This document shows positions 1-7,629 of a DNA stretch of 16,058 bases, in pieces. The notes beneath the pieces were generated by a model that saw only the letters and a list, made by a program, of their open reading frames with translations, had not been told where the DNA came from and did not search any database. Position 1 is the stretch's first letter. Each line of letters starts with the position of its first letter. The position numbers and the translations under genes were made by a program. The stretch lies in assembly GCA_000002435.2 (NCBI GenBank), contig AACB03000008.1, one strand, 5' to 3'. The DNA is from Giardia intestinalis (Eukaryota).

Positions 1-10
1 ATAGTGGAGT
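1..10 (+). repeat. 3' tail of an upstream intergenic spacer (ATAGTGGAGT = end of GTGATAG repeat + TGGAGTG junction); array continues upstream of window
   Basis: Identical to the last 10 nt of every other spacer (e.g. 5757-5766, 3843-3852) immediately before a unit start. Confidence 0.6.
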
Positions 11-1858
11 GTGATATGTACAAAGGCCAGTAATGGACTGTGCACTGCTTGTAAGACAGATAACAAGTACATATTCCAGAACAGGGCAGACAAGGTGACT
101 CCTGGTGGGGAGTGCATCTTGTGCTCTGATATCAAGGGAGCGAATGGATATACGGGAGTGGCCAACTGTCTCAAGTGTACGGCACCAGGGAATGCAGGAC
201 CTGCCACGTGTAATACCTGTCAAGAGGGGTACTTCCTAAACAACAAGCTTTGTAAGCCATGCGAGGGGAACTGTGCCACCTGTGAGACATCGGCGACCCA
301 GTGCACATCGTGTCCAGAGGGGAAGTACCTCAATGGGAATCAATGTACTGATAGCTGTGGTAATGATAAGTATGCTGACCCGGAGTCGGGAACATGCAAG
401 GCATGTAGTACGATACACGCAGAGTGCACGGCATGCTCCTTCGACAAGGCCACGGGGAAGCCGAAGTGCACTAACTGCGGGACCAATAAGACCCCCAGGA
501 CGGCCCTCGACGGGACATCGACCTGCGTGGCGAAGACGCTTGAAGGATGCGAGGGCGCTGACGAGGCCTTATTTATGAAGGAGGACAAAACGTGTGCTCT
601 TTGTAGTGATGTGACAGATTCAACTCTTGGTAACGAAGGAAAGGCCAACTGCAAGACATGTACGAAAACAGGAAGTGACAATCCAACCTGCTCAGCCTGT
701 CTCGATGGATACTTCTTTGATAGTGGTACTAGTACATGTACAGACAAGTGTGGTGATAACTGTGCCACATGCTCTGTTGCTGGTGATCCAAATAAGTGTG
801 AAACCTGCAAGACTGGATACTTCTTAGTAACTACTACAGATCAACAGGGGAAGAAGTGCGTCCCATGCGATAGCGTAGACGATAAGGGTCGCGAAGGCTG
901 CAGTGTCTGCTCTAACAACGGTGCTTTCAAGTGCACTGACTGTAAGCCTAACTATCGCAAGGAGGGCAGTACTGGCTCTGTCACATGCACCAAGATCTGT
1001 GAAGATGATACTGCCTGTGGAGGAACTTCTGGTGCCTGCGATGCAATAGTGATTGATGATAAGGGTGTAGAGCATCATTATTGCTCATACTGTGGAGAAG
1101 CTAATACGTATCCTATAGATGGGAAGTGTAATAGTGCTAAAGCAAATAATCAATGTGATCAAGGTGTATGTACACAATGCACTAACAACTACTTCTTGTA
1201 TATGGGAGGTTGTTACAAGGTTGATACAGTACCTGGACAACATATGTGCAAGACAGCAGCCAACGGTGTCTGTACCGCTGTTAATGCCAACAATAGGTAC
1301 TTCATAGTCCCTGGGGCAACCAATCAGAATCAGTCTGTATTGGCATGTAGCAACTCCCTTGGCACACTAGTAGGCACTGGTGATACCTCTAAGGCATATG
1401 TGGGGGTAGATGGCTGTTCGGCATGCACGGCCCCAACAGCTCTGTCTGAGACTGGTATGACTGCTGCTGTGTGTACAGCGTGTACCAACAACAACAAGCC
1501 CAACCTGGCTGGGAGCGGGTGCTTCGCATGTACCGTTGACGGATGCTCGCACTGTGGAGCAGGCGGTAAGTGCGAGGCCTGTACCAGTAAAGACCAGAGG
1601 CCGAACACAGACGGAACGAAGTGCATCGCCTGCAATATCGACGGGTGCGTCAGGTGCAGCGAGGAGAACAAGTGCGGCCAGTGTGGGGACGACTACAGGC
1701 TGGAGGGTGAGGCGTGCGTGTCCACCAAGCCCAGCGGGGGCAACAGAAGCGGCCTCAGTACTGGTGCCATAGCAGGGATCTCCGTGGCTGTCATCGCTGT
1801 CGTGGGGGGCCTCGTGGGCTTCCTCTGCTGGTGGTTCGTGTGCAGGGGGAAGGCGTGA
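11..1858 (+). CDS. VSP-family cysteine-rich type I membrane protein, unit 1 (615 codons). The frame opens after an in-frame TAG at 2-4 and has no in-frame ATG and no signal peptide
   Basis: Open frame to TGA 1856-1858. The C-terminus reads ...GGNRSGLSTGAIAGISVAVIAVVGGLVGFLCWWFVCRGKA* (TM + CRGKA tail). Many CxxC pairs. YFLYMGGCY motif at about 1190-1216. Positions about 370-1858 are near-identical to 4221-5709. Confidence 0.8.
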   Translation: MICTKASNGLCTACKTDNKYIFQNRADKVTPGGECILCSDIKGANGYTGVANCLKCTAPGNAGPATCNTCQEGYFLNNKLCKPCEGNCATCETSATQCTSCPEGKYLNGNQCTDSCGNDKYADPESGTCKACSTIHAECTACSFDKATGKPKCTNCGTNKTPRTALDGTSTCVAKTLEGCEGADEALFMKEDKTCALCSDVTDSTLGNEGKANCKTCTKTGSDNPTCSACLDGYFFDSGTSTCTDKCGDNCATCSVAGDPNKCETCKTGYFLVTTTDQQGKKCVPCDSVDDKGREGCSVCSNNGAFKCTDCKPNYRKEGSTGSVTCTKICEDDTACGGTSGACDAIVIDDKGVEHHYCSYCGEANTYPIDGKCNSAKANNQCDQGVCTQCTNNYFLYMGGCYKVDTVPGQHMCKTAANGVCTAVNANNRYFIVPGATNQNQSVLACSNSLGTLVGTGDTSKAYVGVDGCSACTAPTALSETGMTAAVCTACTNNNKPNLAGSGCFACTVDGCSHCGAGGKCEACTSKDQRPNTDGTKCIACNIDGCVRCSEENKCGQCGDDYRLEGEACVSTKPSGGNRSGLSTGAIAGISVAVIAVVGGLVGFLCWWFVCRGKA

Positions 1859-1909
1859 CTTGGGTAGTGAATGCTATACAATGGGTGATAGTGTGTGATA
1901 GTATGATAG
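1859..1909 (+). repeat. Intergenic spacer 1: extended poly(A) motif + 2.9 copies of the GTGATAG heptamer + TGGAGTGAGAT junction
   Basis: GTGATAG at 1885-1891 and 1895-1901, ATGATAG at 1903-1909. The final TAG (1907-1909) is the in-frame stop preceding unit 2. Confidence 0.7.
1866..1872 (+). terminator. Giardia-type poly(A) signal AGTGAAT (AGTRAAY), 8 nt after the stop, within extended motif ACTTGGGTAGTGAAT (1858-1872)
   Basis: Matches the AGTRAAY consensus at the expected distance from the stop. The same motif follows every unit. Confidence 0.7.
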
Positions 1910-3783
1910 TGGAGTGAGATATGCACAAAGGCTGAGGGAGGACTGTGCACTGCTTGTAAGACAGCTAACGGCCTGTTCAAGAACCCTGATGCAACACCAG
2001 AGAAGGGTAGTGAGTGCATACTGTGCTCTGATACGACAGATAGAAACGGGGTCATGGGAGTCGCTGGATGCTCAGAATGCTCCCACACGGGCACTAGCGG
2101 ACCGGCCACGTGTACAGAGTGTCAAGCAGGGTTCGTACGAAGGACAGTGCATGTGTGAAGTGCGGAGACGGCTGCTCTGCTTGCTCAGCTGATACTCCGA
2201 CTCAGTGTACCGCCTGCGTTGAGGGGAAGTACCTGAAGGATGGTAACACTTGTGTAGATGCTGGTGGATGTGACAATGGTAACTATGCGGACAAGAAGAC
2301 CTGGACCTGTAAGGCCTGCAGTGAGATACAAGGATGCACCGCGTGTGCATACGACGACGCCACGGGAAAGCCGAAGTGCACCGACTGCGGTAGTAAGACG
2401 GTCAGAGACGAGCTGGATGGGACAACGACCTGTGTTGATGAGGCCGAGTGCAAAGTGGGCAAGACGCACTTCTACGACGCCTCGAAGTGCGTGCAGTGCG
2501 GCGACAATGGTAAGGGCGGAGTCCAGAACTGCAAGCTGTGCACCGCAAAAGGCACCTGCGAGGCTTGTGTCGACGGGTATAAAGTCAACGGAAACGCCTG
2601 CGAGGCCTGCACAGGAAACTGCGCAGAGTGCGGAACAGCGGGTCAAATCAACACATGTACAAGATGCATGCCGGGGTACTTCCTTAAGGATGGCCCGCCT
2701 AAGACATGCGTTCTCTGTGATGACGAGACAAGTGGGATTCCAGGCTGTGCCGAGTGCACAGGCGGCGTGGGGTCCCTCAAATGCACTGAATGTAAGCCCA
2801 ACTACAGACCCAGCGGAGAACCTAGCGACCTCACATGTACAAAGACCTGTGAAGATGAGACTGCATGTGGAGGGACAGCAGGGGCCTGCGACGCCATCGT
2901 GGTCGGCAACGACGGCAGCATGCTCTCTTACTGTTCAAAGTGTGTTGGCGCCGGCTATGGCCCTATTAATGGGAAGTGCACCAATGCACTTGCAGGTAAT
3001 ACCTGCGCCGATGGCGTATGTACGCGGTGCACCAACAACTACTTCCTCTATATGGGTGGTTGCTATGATGTGTCGAAGGCTCCTGGCAACCTCATGTGCT
3101 CTGCGGCTCCAAGTGGGTTCTGCACCACACCGGTCGGGCGCTACTTCAAGATTCCTGGGGACTCTGCTGCTCAGCAGTCCGTGCTTGCCTGTGGCAACCC
3201 TGTGGGAGCGACCGCGGGCGACAAGGCGTACGTCGGCGTGCTAGACTGCACGGCGTGCGCGGCCCCGCAGGCGCCAGCCGCCAATGCGATGGCCGCGGCG
3301 GTCTGTAGTGCGTGCGACAAGACGAAGAAGCCCAACAAGGATGGCAGCGGGTGCACCCTGTGTGCGGTCGGCGGGTGCAAGAGCTGCGCCATCGACGGGA
3401 TGTGCGAGGTGTGTGCTGAGGACAATAAGAAGCCCAACATGGCTGGAAGCACCTGCTATGTGTGTCCGGCCCAGGGCTGCTCTCACTGCAGCGCAGACAA
3501 CAAGTGTGAGGCATGTACCAATAAAGACCAGAGACCCAGCCTGGACGGCACCCAGTGCATTGTCTGTGACATAGAGAGGTGCATGCGGTGCAGCGCAGAG
3601 GGCGTCTGCGGGGAGTGCGAGGAGGGCTATGTCCCGAGGGATGGCATGTGTGTGTCCTCTGGCACCAACAGGAGCGGGCTCTCCACGGGGGCCGTCGCGG
3701 GGATCTCCGTGGCTGTCATCGCTGTCGTGGGGGGCCTCGTGGGCTTCCTCTGCTGGTGGTTCGTGTGCAGGGGGAAGGCGTGA
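1910..3783 (+). pseudogene. VSP-family unit 2, disrupted by a 1-nt deletion (between 2136 and 2137) relative to paralog unit 5. The 5' part stops at TGA 2156-2158. The rest (2137-3783, 549 codons) continues in the -1 frame to a normal TM + CRGKA end
   Basis: 1910-2270 aligns with 7630-7990. Unit 5 has GGG TTC GTT ACG AAG (7849-7863) where unit 2 has GGG TTC GT- ACG AAG. The ORF-track entry 2110..3783 ends ...GLSTGAVAGISVAVIAVVGGLVGFLCWWFVCRGKA*. The GGCY motif is present. The 3' two-thirds is GC-richer and diverged from the other units. Confidence 0.6.
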
Positions 3784-3852
3784 CTTGGGTAGTGAATGCT
3801 GTACAATGGGTGATAGAAGGTGATAGTGGGTGATAATGTGTGATAGTGGAGT
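3784..3852 (+). repeat. Intergenic spacer 2: extended poly(A) motif + 4 heptamers (GTGATAG 3810-3816, 3820-3826; GTGATAA 3830-3836; GTGATAG 3840-3846) + TGGAGT
   Basis: Direct reading. TAG 3844-3846 is the in-frame stop before unit 3. Confidence 0.7.
3791..3797 (+). terminator. poly(A) signal AGTGAAT
   Basis: 8 nt downstream of TGA 3781-3783, inside ACTTGGGTAGTGAAT. Confidence 0.7.
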
Positions 3853-5709
3853 GTGATATGCACAGCAGCCAGTGATGGAGTGTGCACTGCTTGTAAGACA
3901 GCTAACGGCCTGTTCAAGAACCCAGTTACACCTCAGAAGCCTGGTAGTGAGTGCATCCTCTGTCATGATGTCAATGGGGCAGATGGATATACAGGGGTGG
4001 CTAACTGCGCACAGTGTACCAAGTCAGACAGTAGTCCAGGACCTGCCACGTGTACAGAGTGCCAAGATGGATACTACAAGAACTCTCAGACATGTGTCAA
4101 ATGTAATGAAGCTTGTCTGACCTGCGATGGAAGTGGTCAGAATCATTGTACATCGTGCCCAGAGGGGAAGTACCTGAAGAGTAATCAATGTGTACAAGAT
4201 ACTGGATGCGATGGAAACACTTATGCTGACCCGGAGTCGGGAACATGCAAGGCATGTAGTACGATACACGCAGAGTGCACGGCATGCTCCTTCGACAAGG
4301 CCACGGGGAAGCCGAAGTGCACTAACTGCGGGACCAATAAGACCCCCAGGACGGCCCTCGACGGGACATCGACCTGCGTGGCGAAGACGCTTGAAGGATG
4401 CGAGGGCGCTGACGAGGCCTTATTTATGAAGGAGGACAAAACGTGTGCTCTTTGTAGTGATGTGACAGATTCAACTCTTGGTAACGAAGGAAAGGCCAAC
4501 TGCAAGACATGTACGAAAACAGGAAGTGACAATCCAACCTGCTCAGCCTGTCTCGATGGATACTTCTTTGATAGTGGTACTAGTACATGTACAGACAAGT
4601 GTGGTGATAACTGTGCCACATGCTCTGTTGCTGGTGATCCAAATAAGTGTGAAACCTGCAAGACTGGATACTTCTTAGTAACTACTACAGATCAACAGGG
4701 GAAGAAGTGCGTCCCATGCGATAGCGTAGACGATAAGGGTCGCGAAGGCTGCAGTGTCTGCTCTAACAACGGTGCTTTCAAGTGCACTGACTGTAAGCCT
4801 AACTATCGCAAGGAGGGCAGTACTGGCTCTGTCACATGCACCAAGATCTGTGAAGATGATACTGCCTGTGGAGGAACTTCTGGTGCCTGCGATGCAATAG
4901 TGATTGATGATAAGGGTGTAGAGCATCATTATTGCTCATACTGTGGAGAAGCTAATACGTATCCTATAGATGGGAAGTGTAATAGTGCTAAAGCAAATAA
5001 TCAATGTGATCAAGGTGTATGTACACAATGCACTAACAACTACTTCTTGTATATGGGAGGTTGTTACAAGGTTGATACAGTACCTGGACAACATATGTGC
5101 AAGACAGCAGCCAACGGTGTCTGTACCGCTGTTAATGCCAACAATAGGTACTTCATAGTCCCTGGGGCAACCAATCAGAATCAGTCTGTATTAGCATGTA
5201 GCAACTCCCTTGGCACACTAGTAGGCACTGGTGATACCTCTAAGGCATACGTTGGGGTACTCAACTGCTCAGCATGCACGGCCCCAACAGCTCCATCTGA
5301 GACTGGTATGACTGCTGCTGTGTGTACAGCGTGTACCAACAACAACAAGCCCAACCTGGCTGGGAGCGGGTGCTTCGCATGTACCGTTGACGGATGCTCG
5401 CACTGTGGAGCAGGCGGTAAGTGCGAGGCCTGTACCAGTAAAGACCAGAGGCCGAACACAGACGGAACGAAGTGCATCGCCTGCAATATCGACGGGTGCG
5501 TCAGGTGCAGCGAGGAGAACAAGTGCGGCCAGTGTGGGGACGACTACAGGCTGGAGGGTGAGGCGTGCGTGTCCACCAAGCCCAGCGGGGGCAACAGAAG
5601 CGGCCTCAGTACTGGTGCCATAGCAGGGATCTCCGTCGCTGTCATCGCTGTCGTGGGGGGCCTCGTGGGCTTCCTCTGCTGGTGGTTCGTGTGCAGGGGG
5701 AAGGCGTGA
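3853..5709 (+). CDS. VSP-family protein, unit 3 (618 codons). No in-frame ATG or signal peptide (frame open from 3847)
   Basis: Ends ...GLSTGAIAGISVAVIAVVGGLVGFLCWWFVCRGKA* at 5709. Has CxxC pairs and a GGCY motif. The 3' 1.49 kb equals unit 1 (offset 3851). The 5' 1.38 kb equals unit 8 (offset 10642). Confidence 0.8.
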   Translation: MICTAASDGVCTACKTANGLFKNPVTPQKPGSECILCHDVNGADGYTGVANCAQCTKSDSSPGPATCTECQDGYYKNSQTCVKCNEACLTCDGSGQNHCTSCPEGKYLKSNQCVQDTGCDGNTYADPESGTCKACSTIHAECTACSFDKATGKPKCTNCGTNKTPRTALDGTSTCVAKTLEGCEGADEALFMKEDKTCALCSDVTDSTLGNEGKANCKTCTKTGSDNPTCSACLDGYFFDSGTSTCTDKCGDNCATCSVAGDPNKCETCKTGYFLVTTTDQQGKKCVPCDSVDDKGREGCSVCSNNGAFKCTDCKPNYRKEGSTGSVTCTKICEDDTACGGTSGACDAIVIDDKGVEHHYCSYCGEANTYPIDGKCNSAKANNQCDQGVCTQCTNNYFLYMGGCYKVDTVPGQHMCKTAANGVCTAVNANNRYFIVPGATNQNQSVLACSNSLGTLVGTGDTSKAYVGVLNCSACTAPTAPSETGMTAAVCTACTNNNKPNLAGSGCFACTVDGCSHCGAGGKCEACTSKDQRPNTDGTKCIACNIDGCVRCSEENKCGQCGDDYRLEGEACVSTKPSGGNRSGLSTGAIAGISVAVIAVVGGLVGFLCWWFVCRGKA

Positions 5710-5766
5710 CTTGGGTAGTGAATGCTGTACAATGGGTGATAGTGTGTGATAGTATGATAGTGGAGT
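5710..5766 (+). repeat. Intergenic spacer 3: poly(A) motif + GTGATAG x2 (5736-5742, 5746-5752) + ATGATAG (5754-5760) + TGGAGT
   Basis: Direct reading. Nearly identical to spacers 1 and 4. Confidence 0.7.
5717..5723 (+). terminator. poly(A) signal AGTGAAT
   Basis: 8 nt after TGA 5707-5709. Confidence 0.7.
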
Positions 5767-7578
5767 GTGATATGCACACAGGCCAGTAATGGAGTATGCA
5801 CTGCTTGTAATACAGATAGTCAGTACATATTCCAGAATGGGGCAGACAAGGTGACCCCTGGTGGGGAGTGCATCCTCTGTCATGATGCCACAGGAGCGAA
5901 TGAGAACAAGGGAGTGGCCAACTGTCTCAAGTGCACGGCACCTGGTGGCAATACAGGAGCGGCCACGTGCACCGAGTGTCAAGATGGGTACTACATGGAC
6001 TCTCAGGCATGTACCAAATGTGATGGTACTTGTCTGACCTGTGAGACATCGGCGACCCAGTGTACCTCTTGTAAGGGAAATACGTTCCTGAAGGATAATG
6101 CATGCGTGAATAGTGATGGATGCACTGGAAACACTTATGCTGACCCTATGACAATGACATGCAAGGAGTCTGGTATAGCAGATTGCACCGCGTGTGAGTA
6201 CAACACGACTGTCAGCAAGCCCCAGTGCACCGCCTGTAACAATAAGAAGGTGAAGACAGAGCTGGATGGGACAACCACTTGCGTCGATGATGCTGGGTGC
6301 GCAACAGATAACGTCGACGGATCCCACTTTCTGAGTGATGATAGCACCAAGTGCATATTATGCAGTGATACAACAACAGGAACAGAAGCAAACGACAAGG
6401 GGATTGCTAATTGTAAAACGTGTAAGAAGAACGGAGCCAAGCCGACCTGCTCAGCTTGCCTCGACGGATACTTTGGTTCTGATACATGCACAGCTTGCGG
6501 TGCCAACTGTGCTACATGCTCTGCTGCTGGCAATGATCAGTGCACTAAATGCAAGCCTGGATTCTTCATGAAACAACCCGGCTCTGCTGGTAAGTGCTTC
6601 GCCTGCGACAGTAAAGCCGACAATGGCATCGAGGGGTGCTCCCAATGTAACAGCGGCCTAACCCCTACATGCACCGATTGCAAGTCCAACTATCGCAAGG
6701 AGGGAACCAATCCGGTGAAGTGCACAAAGGCCTGCGAGGACCCCACGGCCTGCGGGGGGACGTCTGGGGCCTGCGGGGCGGTCGTCGTTGACAGCGCCGG
6801 GGCGTTCTCCCAGTACTGCTCGCTGTGCGGAGACCCCGCCACGTTCCCCATCGATGGGATCTGCACAGGAACTAAGGGTGACAACACCTGTGCCAATGGC
6901 GTCTGCACCCGGTGTGCTGCCGGGTTCTTCCTGTACATGGGCGGCTGCTATGATGTGTCGAAGGCTCCTGGCAGCCACATGTGCAAGACTGCCGAGGGAG
7001 GGAGGTGCACCGCCCCCAGCGAGAACGGCCGGTACTTCCTGGTCCCGGGGGCATCCAATACTGATCAGTCTGTCCTGGCCTGCGAGAACCCCCTAGGCAC
7101 ACTAGTAGGCACTGGTGATACTGCTAAGGCATACGTGGGGGTACTCAACTGTTCACAGTGTACAGCCCCAGCAGCTCCATCTGATGGTGGCATGACTGCC
7201 GCCACGTGCACAGCGTGTACCAACAACAACAAGCCCAACCTGGCTGGGAGCGGGTGCTTCCCATGTACCGTTAGTGGATGCTCGCACTGTGATATGGACA
7301 ACATGTGCGAGGCATGCAGTAGTGGTAAGAAGGTGAGCCCTGGAAGGAAGTCATGCGTGGATAGCTGCCCCAGCAACTCCACTGACACCGACTCTGTCTG
7401 TGTGTGCAACGATGGATACAGCCCTGACAGCAGTGGGACCTCCTGTGCGTCCTCTGGCACCAACAAGAGCGGCCTCAGTACTGGTGCCATAGCAGGGATC
7501 TCCGTCGCTGTCATCGCTGTCGTGGGGGGCCTCGTCGGCTTCCTCTGCTGGTGGTTCATATGTAGAGGGAAGGCGTGA
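5767..7578 (+). CDS. VSP-family protein, unit 4 (603 codons). No in-frame ATG or signal peptide
   Basis: Ends ...NKSGLSTGAIAGISVAVIAVVGGLVGFLCWWFICRGKA*. Has a GGCY motif (FFLYMGGCYDV). 5767 to about 7095 is identical to 9451 to about 10779 in unit 6. Confidence 0.8.
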   Translation: MICTQASNGVCTACNTDSQYIFQNGADKVTPGGECILCHDATGANENKGVANCLKCTAPGGNTGAATCTECQDGYYMDSQACTKCDGTCLTCETSATQCTSCKGNTFLKDNACVNSDGCTGNTYADPMTMTCKESGIADCTACEYNTTVSKPQCTACNNKKVKTELDGTTTCVDDAGCATDNVDGSHFLSDDSTKCILCSDTTTGTEANDKGIANCKTCKKNGAKPTCSACLDGYFGSDTCTACGANCATCSAAGNDQCTKCKPGFFMKQPGSAGKCFACDSKADNGIEGCSQCNSGLTPTCTDCKSNYRKEGTNPVKCTKACEDPTACGGTSGACGAVVVDSAGAFSQYCSLCGDPATFPIDGICTGTKGDNTCANGVCTRCAAGFFLYMGGCYDVSKAPGSHMCKTAEGGRCTAPSENGRYFLVPGASNTDQSVLACENPLGTLVGTGDTAKAYVGVLNCSQCTAPAAPSDGGMTAATCTACTNNNKPNLAGSGCFPCTVSGCSHCDMDNMCEACSSGKKVSPGRKSCVDSCPSNSTDTDSVCVCNDGYSPDSSGTSCASSGTNKSGLSTGAIAGISVAVIAVVGGLVGFLCWWFICRGKA

Positions 7579-7629
7579 CTTGGGTAGTGAATGCTATACA
7601 ATGGGTGATAGTGTGTGATAGTATGATAG
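7579..7629 (+). repeat. Intergenic spacer 4: poly(A) motif + GTGATAG heptamers + junction
   Basis: Same sequence as spacer 1. In-frame TAG at 7627-7629. Confidence 0.7.
7586..7592 (+). terminator. poly(A) signal AGTGAAT
   Basis: 8 nt after TGA 7576-7578. Confidence 0.7.

Follow-up and report, generated by a model that had tools for sequence, protein, structure and literature searches.

The 16,058-nt stretch of Giardia intestinalis WB DNA analysed here, referred to as the window, is very probably part of a linear array in which pseudo-VSP (psiVSP) units, each a 5'-truncated VSP copy, are arranged head-to-tail. Taken as a whole, this is the best explanation of its features. Eight VSP units follow one another head-to-tail on the + strand (Table 1) and are separated by spacers of 54-75 nt counted from the stop codon, which agrees with the two or more units at ~60 bp spacing that define a psiVSP linear array. 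The units also share the defining deficiency of downstream array members, in that they have neither Inr nor signal peptide nor a proper start codon. Each unit is without its own means of making a surface VSP. The first array member, which might carry a promoter and a leader, is located outside the window.

Table 1 Units and spacers along the window (position 1 is the first nucleotide).
Feature	Coordinates	Strand	Description
Unit 1, 5'-truncated pseudo-VSP	5-1858	+	Open frame WSVICT...CRGKA*, 617 aa; 28 CXXC, one GGCY, TM; first in-frame ATG at 575
Spacer unit 1/unit 2	1859-1909	+	AGTGAA at 1866 as poly(A) signal; GTGATAG repeats downstream
Unit 2, pseudo-VSP	1910-3783	+	1 nt deleted between 2135 and 2136, after which the body is read in a different frame as far as CRGKA*
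Spacer unit 2/unit 3	3784-3846	+	Extended VSP poly(A) signal ACTTGGGTAGTGAATGC, then C-free GTGATAG-type 10/8-mers, closing with in-frame TAG
Unit 3, 5'-truncated pseudo-VSP	3847-5709	+	620 aa; PF03302 E 5.6e-39; unit to which the original prediction was attached
Spacer unit 3/unit 4	5710-5760	+	
Unit 4, 5'-truncated pseudo-VSP	5761-7578	+	605 aa; 1325-nt tract identical to unit 6
Spacer unit 4/unit 5	7579-7629	+	
Unit 5, 5'-truncated pseudo-VSP	7630-9393	+	587 aa; internal ATG ORF 7774-9393
Spacer unit 5/unit 6	9394-9444	+	
Unit 6, pseudo-VSP	9445-11275	+	2 nt missing in TM region (~11243-11246); CRGKA out of frame
Spacer unit 6/unit 7	11276-11347	+	Longest spacer; five repeat copies
Unit 7, double-length pseudo-VSP	11348-14419	+	1023 aa, 45 CXXC, two GGCY
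Spacer unit 7/unit 8	14420-14488	+	
Unit 8, pseudo-VSP	14489-16058	+	3' part beyond window end; 1290-nt tract identical to unit 3

Bodies of the units

The units retain the Cys-rich ectodomain of a functional VSP, with a Cys content of 11.9-13.3%, 24-45 CXXC motifs and 1-2 GGCY motifs per unit. Their matches to the Giardia VSP family PF03302 are well over the Pfam cut-off, with E values of 5.6e-39 to 3.2e-84, and a protein database search with the units returned Giardia VSPs only. The top match, XP_001705784.1 (G. lamblia ATCC 50803), is a WB VSP whose annotated start is an internal Met; it is 99% identical to unit 3 over 69% of that unit. The internal ATG ORF of unit 5 is identical to GenBank AAN52102.1, designated 'VSP S7'; a literature search on the origin of VSP S7, cDNA or genomic, found nothing. 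These matches place the window in G. intestinalis WB or in an assemblage A isolate almost identical to it. The lesson for annotation is that internal-Met ORFs in arrays, such as these two, are not genuine VSP proteins. As a side observation, ICTKASNGLCTACK exemplifies a peptide that is unique to units 1-8.

Seven of the units end in a TM helix, CRGKA and a stop codon. In five of these (units 1, 3, 4, 5 and 7) the frame of this ending is that of the unit start, whereas units 2 and 6 have it in a different frame; unit 8 ends at the window edge. At all seven stops an extended poly(A) motif, ACTT(G/A)GGTAGTGAATGC, begins 1 nt past the stop codon and agrees with the extended VSP poly(A) signal ACTTAGRTAGTRAAYRY as defined in the Rodriguez-Walker et al. 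2022 preprint. Frameshifts occur in two of the eight units (units 2 and 6, Table 1), and long intact frames of 523-1023 codons are kept in the other six, that of unit 8 being bounded by the window end. Six intact frames out of eight exceed the expectation for old unconstrained pseudogenes, and recent conversion explains this excess. Minus-strand ORFs, which reach 352 aa, gave no Pfam match and are taken as by-products of composition; an Rfam scan of the window gave no match.

Mosaic structure and the possible role of the array

Comparison of the units with one another revealed tracts of 100% identity that directly adjoin regions of ~55-75% identity. Units 1 and 3 are ~65% identical in the first ~366 nt and then share a 971-nt tract at 100%, units 3 and 8 drop to ~65% identity after 1290 identical nucleotides, and the 1325 nt common to units 4 and 6 lie at the 5' side of unit 6. 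A 380-nt tract at the 3' end of unit 6 is identical to unit 1; unit 6 is thus a mosaic. Under a model in which differences are placed uniformly, the identical tracts (971, 1290, 1325 and 380 nt) have P < 1e-43. The divergent segments exhibit dN/dS values of 0.18-0.53 with dS near saturation, and Cys positions are kept at 84-100% (92-100% in full-length pairs). The low dN/dS together with the Cys conservation indicates that the divergence arose under protein-level constraint rather than by long neutral decay.

A search for leader-bearing VSPs elsewhere in the genome with bodies that match the units had been suggested with the original prediction, and leader-bearing proteins of this kind were found, with identical tracts of 125-287 aa, in a protein-level and non-directional comparison with a WB-labelled G. 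intestinalis protein set. The 3' part of unit 2 shares 287 aa with the complete VSP P0003, unit 5 shares 142 aa with the complete VSP P0007, and units 4 and 6 share 125 aa with P0018, which has a leader and whose annotation is high-cysteine membrane protein. Units 4 and 6 also share a 69-aa identical tract with P0005. VSPs are over-represented in the gene-conversion tracts of assemblage AI.

These features suggest that a truncated VSP unit was duplicated in tandem to build up the array and that segmental exchange may continue among the units and complete genes. Over evolutionary time the array would then serve as a store of VSP body sequence, for the most part silent, and would have no part in epigenetic/RNAi-type switching as such. 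Of the steps in this scheme the reservoir function is the least secure, and the chances for and against it appear evenly balanced. A silent 5'-truncated cassette reservoir was among the possibilities raised by the original prediction. It is consistent with the mosaics and the shared tracts, and corresponds to the view expressed by Adam et al. 2010 (PMC2996952) and Xu et al. 2020 (PMC7000408).

Alternatively, though this is rather unlikely, the units may be genomic debris, that is, dead tandem duplicates with no role, homogenised by incidental unequal crossing-over alone. The frameshifts in two of eight units and the lack of a promoter or start in the units are compatible with debris, as is the essential absence of transcription of psiVSPs in G. 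muris (PMC7641422), and Adam et al. 2010 (PMC2996952) lists debris as an equal alternative. However, long identical tracts are common to the units and to complete cysteine-rich surface-protein genes of the WB-labelled set, six units have intact frames and conserved Cys residues, and the junction is retained in arrays from independent samples, with analogous psiVSP arrays in G. muris.

We consider it improbable that the array serves as a source of regulatory RNA, in which low-level sense or antisense array transcripts would feed an RNAi-like pathway for the silencing of homologous VSPs. Transcripts of some pVSPs are detected, at higher levels in cysts (PMC8700996), hence the term 'silent' is not absolute; antisense reads exceed sense reads at most VSP loci according to the Rodriguez-Walker et al. 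2022 preprint, and the long identical tracts shared with complete VSPs could allow targeting. Yet neither strand of the window shows any sign of a promoter, the minus-strand ORFs have no family match and no Rfam family is matched, and the psiVSPs of G. muris are not transcribed (PMC7641422).

The reservoir reading has a stronger form, to which we assign a similarly low probability, in which the array would be an actively used donor archive with the GTGATAG block (5') and the TM-CRGKA-PAS block (3') acting as recombination-promoting flanks. Body segments might then be copied into promoter-bearing VSPs during infection, giving rise to antigens beyond the ~136 complete genes. The unit flanks would then be comparable to the 70-bp repeats and to the 3' homology that accompany T. 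brucei VSG cassettes.

Unit boundaries and routes to expression

All eight frames had been predicted to open directly after an in-frame TAG contributed by the last GTGATAG, and the sequence agrees at every unit. At the seven starts from 1910 to 14489 (Table 1) the VSP frame reads TGG AGT (GTG/GAG) ATA TGC ACA straight after the TAG with which a (G)TGATAG repeat ends. Unit 1 has the same layout, with TAG at 2-4 and TGG at 5; the start at position 11 originally given for this unit falls on the GTG codon. The pattern W-S-(V/E)-I-C-T-(K/A/Q)-A-(S/E)-(N/D/G)-G-(L/V)-C-T-A-C, also part of the original prediction, holds except in unit 7, where S occupies position 10.

Counted from the stop codon, the spacers measure 54, 66, 54, 54, 54, 75 and 72 nt in order. 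Each is made up of a constant 28-nt block with the poly(A) motif, followed by GTGATAG-type 10/8/6-mers, three to five in number and free of C. The heptamer GTGATAG occurs 19 times in the window, on the + strand and in the spacers only, compared with 2.6 +/- 1.7 occurrences in shuffled sequences, none of which (0/200) reached 19. The C-free repeats resemble the first codons of the units (GTGATATGC), GTGATAG being similar to GTG ATA TGC (V-I-C), and they put TGA-TAG stops into the downstream frame. The repeat block looks as if it had arisen from the truncated 5' edge by slippage or duplication.

Two independent gut-metagenome scaffolds, L002 (ERZ28595607) and L003 (ERZ27316335), show the same CRGKA-PAS-repeat-VICT junction. 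In these scaffolds the W-S codons are missing, the repeat passes straight into GGTGATATGCACA and the in-frame TAG is one codon upstream. The recurrence of the junction in both scaffolds indicates that it is real and conserved, and no assembly artefact.

Two further readings of the spacers were rejected. The window spacers are all multiples of 3, as if the units were deliberately held in one frame, but the L002 and L003 spacers measure 62 nt to the ATA codon (mod 3 = 2). The period-10 repeat could resemble a designed three-frame stop cassette, but frame 2 is closed in just three of the seven spacers.

The extent of the 5' truncation was derived from complete relatives. The complete VSPs P0003, P0005, P0007, P0017 and P0044 carry (G/W)SE(I/V)CT at residue 103-105. 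They start with a leader, for instance MFQLIPLFVASALMA or MLLIALHLVTSILA; a Cys-rich module of ~88 aa that closes with ...CGDGYFLFMGGCYK comes next, and the module that precedes (G/W)SE(I/V)CT ends GDGYFLFMGGCYK. The position of WSEICT at residue ~103-105 in these proteins indicates that each unit is without ~104 codons, comprising the signal peptide and the ~88-aa Cys-rich N-terminal module. The unit frame opens at VSP residue ~104, not at the mature N-terminus. The original prediction, in which the missing part was the ATG and a 14-17 aa signal peptide alone, therefore understated the loss, as the conserved Cys-rich module is absent as well. A tblastn search of the window with the N-terminal module identified weak internal paralogous GYFLYMGGCY sites alone, with none in the spacers or just upstream of the unit starts, and VSP leader sequences gave a best E value of at least 0.28. 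Neither leader nor N-module coding sequence adjoins any unit start in the window.

The first in-frame ATG is located 570, 144, 579, 234, 144, 234, 849 and 579 nt into units 1-8, respectively, so that the offsets span 144-849 nt in place of the 250-560 bp originally given for five of the units. The accompanying claim, that neither an in-frame ATG nor a hydrophobic leader stands ahead of the body, was borne out in all eight units. The maximum 10-aa Kyte-Doolittle value after in-frame Mets is at most 1.16, compared with 2.17-2.41 for real VSP leaders (P0005, P0003), and the 14-17 aa signal peptide that follows the initiating Met of a functional VSP is absent from the units. Likewise, the Inr PyAATGTT of functional VSPs has no match on either strand of the window; it is present in 135 of 136 complete VSPs according to the Rodriguez-Walker et al. 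2022 preprint. With no Inr, start codon, leader or N-module in any unit, the prediction that no secreted VSP can be made from a conventional start is upheld.

Each spacer contains three ATGs, each of which opens a mere 3-11 codons. The first lies within the poly(A) signal, shares the frame of the next unit and here gives MLYNG followed by a stop. From the same poly(A)-signal ATG in other WB arrays the frame stays open across the repeat, as MLYSDSDS..., and enters the body (P0004, P0009, P0011, P0121), and this read-through explains odd N-termini in the 2007 annotation.

The 3' intron motif of Giardia has a consensus of the CTRACACRCAG type. Motifs of this type are absent from both strands of the window, and no CTRAC is found within 40 nt upstream of any unit. 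Hidden expression, by a leader exon cis- or trans-spliced to each unit or by an unconventional start such as the GTG of WSV, is thus most improbable, even though every spacer ends in AG and long open frames are kept. Both routes had been offered by the original prediction. The spliced leader is opposed by the lack of the intron motif near the unit starts and of leader sequence beside them. As for unconventional initiation, the spacer ATGs terminate within 3-11 codons, and a non-ATG start would still miss the signal peptide and the ~88-aa conserved module.

The probability that assembly or sequencing removed the 5' ends of the units is very low: VSP arrays are hard to assemble and the old-assembly XP_001705784.1 matches unit 3 at 99%, not 100%, but one structure is common to eight junctions and recurs in the two metagenome scaffolds, the unit 5 ORF is identical to the independent GenBank clone AAN52102.1, and PMC2996952 and PMC7000408 describe such arrays from two separate WB assemblies. 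The junctions, the scaffolds and the clone all agree with the original view that a sequencing error was unlikely.

Comparison with known systems

The finding and its leading interpretation are already known, having been published since 2010. As described by Adam et al. 2010 (PMC2996952), more than half of the WB vsp genes reside in linear arrays with ~60-bp spacers (from overlap to 241 bp by definition), the downstream array members are all without the Inr, and member pairs share long 100%-identical regions; array members were proposed to be recombination cassettes. Xu et al. 2020 (PMC7000408) describes psiVSP arrays in WB and states the reservoir view, and the reservoir idea is repeated in the Rodriguez-Walker et al. 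2022 preprint. The window is an instance of this class of G. intestinalis psiVSP linear arrays, with the same head-to-tail order, ~60-bp spacer, CRGKA end, poly(A) signal and 100% tracts, and nothing essential differs. On present evidence it only re-illustrates a published genome feature. Modestly new are three details, namely the truncation point at ~residue 104 after the GDGYFLFMGGCYK module, the way in which the C-free GTGATAG repeat merges with the V-I-C codons, and the tracts in common with P0003, P0007 and P0018. These details are absent from the descriptions of arrays in the accessible portions of Adam 2010, Xu 2020 and Rodriguez-Walker 2022.

The G. muris genome (PMC7641422) contains psiVSP arrays with segmental gene conversion and essentially no transcription. 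Like the window, these arrays are tandem, have no signal peptides, show evidence of recombination or gene conversion with intact VSPs and are largely untranscribed. They differ from those of G. intestinalis in the CRGK tail, in being almost all telomere-adjacent and in coexisting with few intact VSPs; the G. intestinalis arrays are not preferentially telomeric (PMC7641422).

If psiVSP arrays do donate to expressed VSPs, the antigenic repertoire of Giardia would effectively be open-ended, and vaccine strategies built on a fixed set of complete VSPs would have to allow for array-derived sequence.

Silent-cassette archives include the T. brucei VSG arrays (70-bp repeats), the Borrelia vls cassettes, Neisseria pilS and the Anaplasma msp2 pseudogenes. 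Such archives resemble the window in their promoterless 5'-truncated tandem copies with open frames, mosaicism with expressed genes, a short upstream repeat and a conserved 3' block. In contrast to these systems, Giardia switches without DNA rearrangement, possesses more than 130 complete genes and has no single expression site; as set out by Adam et al. 2010 (PMC2996952), both the sequence and the location of the VSP are unchanged in Giardia antigenic variation.

Poly(A)-signal ATG codons and annotated N-termini

Each of the seven window spacers contains an ATG inside the AGTGAATGC of its poly(A) signal. This ATG is in frame with the following unit, yet in the window it ends early as MLYN(G/V)-stop. 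In other WB arrays the corresponding frame remains open through the repeat, giving MLYSDSDS...LLFMGGCY...GSEICT in the database proteins P0004, P0009, P0011 and P0121. Read-through from the poly(A)-signal ATG in these other arrays gave rise to false N-termini in the 2007 annotation. In a further database protein, P0006, the spacer-derived stretch MIVLCGVLCSV resembles a hydrophobic leader.

Positions of poly(A)-signal ATG codons and repeat parts in the window spacers, and of the metagenome spacers compared
Sequence	ATG in AGTGAATGC	Repeat part	Spacer compared
Window	1871	1884-1909	
Window	3796	3809-3846	
Window	5722	5735-5760	
Window	7591	7604-7629	
Window	9406	9419-9444	
Window	11288	11301-11347	
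Window	14432	14445-14488	
L002			105-166
L002			2114-2175
L003			1872-1933

Spacer repeats and reading frame

The repeat parts of the window spacers are rich in GT, and none of the seven contains a single C in its 26-47 nt. The final repeat copy is similar to the first codons of the unit (GTGATAG versus GTGATATGC), and V-I-C-T is joined directly to the repeat in two gut-metagenome scaffolds that carry an array junction, L002 (ERZ28595607) and L003 (ERZ27316335). The spacer repeat may have arisen by slippage at the unit's truncated 5' edge; a role in recombination is speculative.

All seven window spacer lengths are divisible by 3, which places the units in one common frame, two frameshifts excepted. 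This divisibility is probably coincidence or local inheritance, because the L002 and L003 spacers, with 62 nt to the ATA codon, break the rule.

Relatives of the array units

A solitary VSP on L001, a 132-kb Giardia contig (ERZ28528424; region 10001-10420), carries an N-terminal module absent from the array units. By eye, the module is seemingly GC-rich, with an apparent composition drop at the GSDICT boundary; leader-like codons (LLIPLFAVSTIA) lie upstream without an obvious ATG in this assembly.

GenBank AAN52102.1 (UniProt Q8I8W2), entered as 'variant-specific surface protein S7', is identical to the 539-aa ORF that starts at an internal ATG of unit 5 (7774-9393). If cDNA-derived rather than genomic, this entry would show psiVSP transcription.

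Unit 7 (11348-14419) runs to 1023 aa, approximately twice the normal length, with 45 CXXC motifs and two GGCY modules. It looks like a fusion of two VSP bodies that has lost the TM/CRGKA and spacer between them, and its distal part has 158 identical amino acids in common with XP_001707661.1 (P0090).
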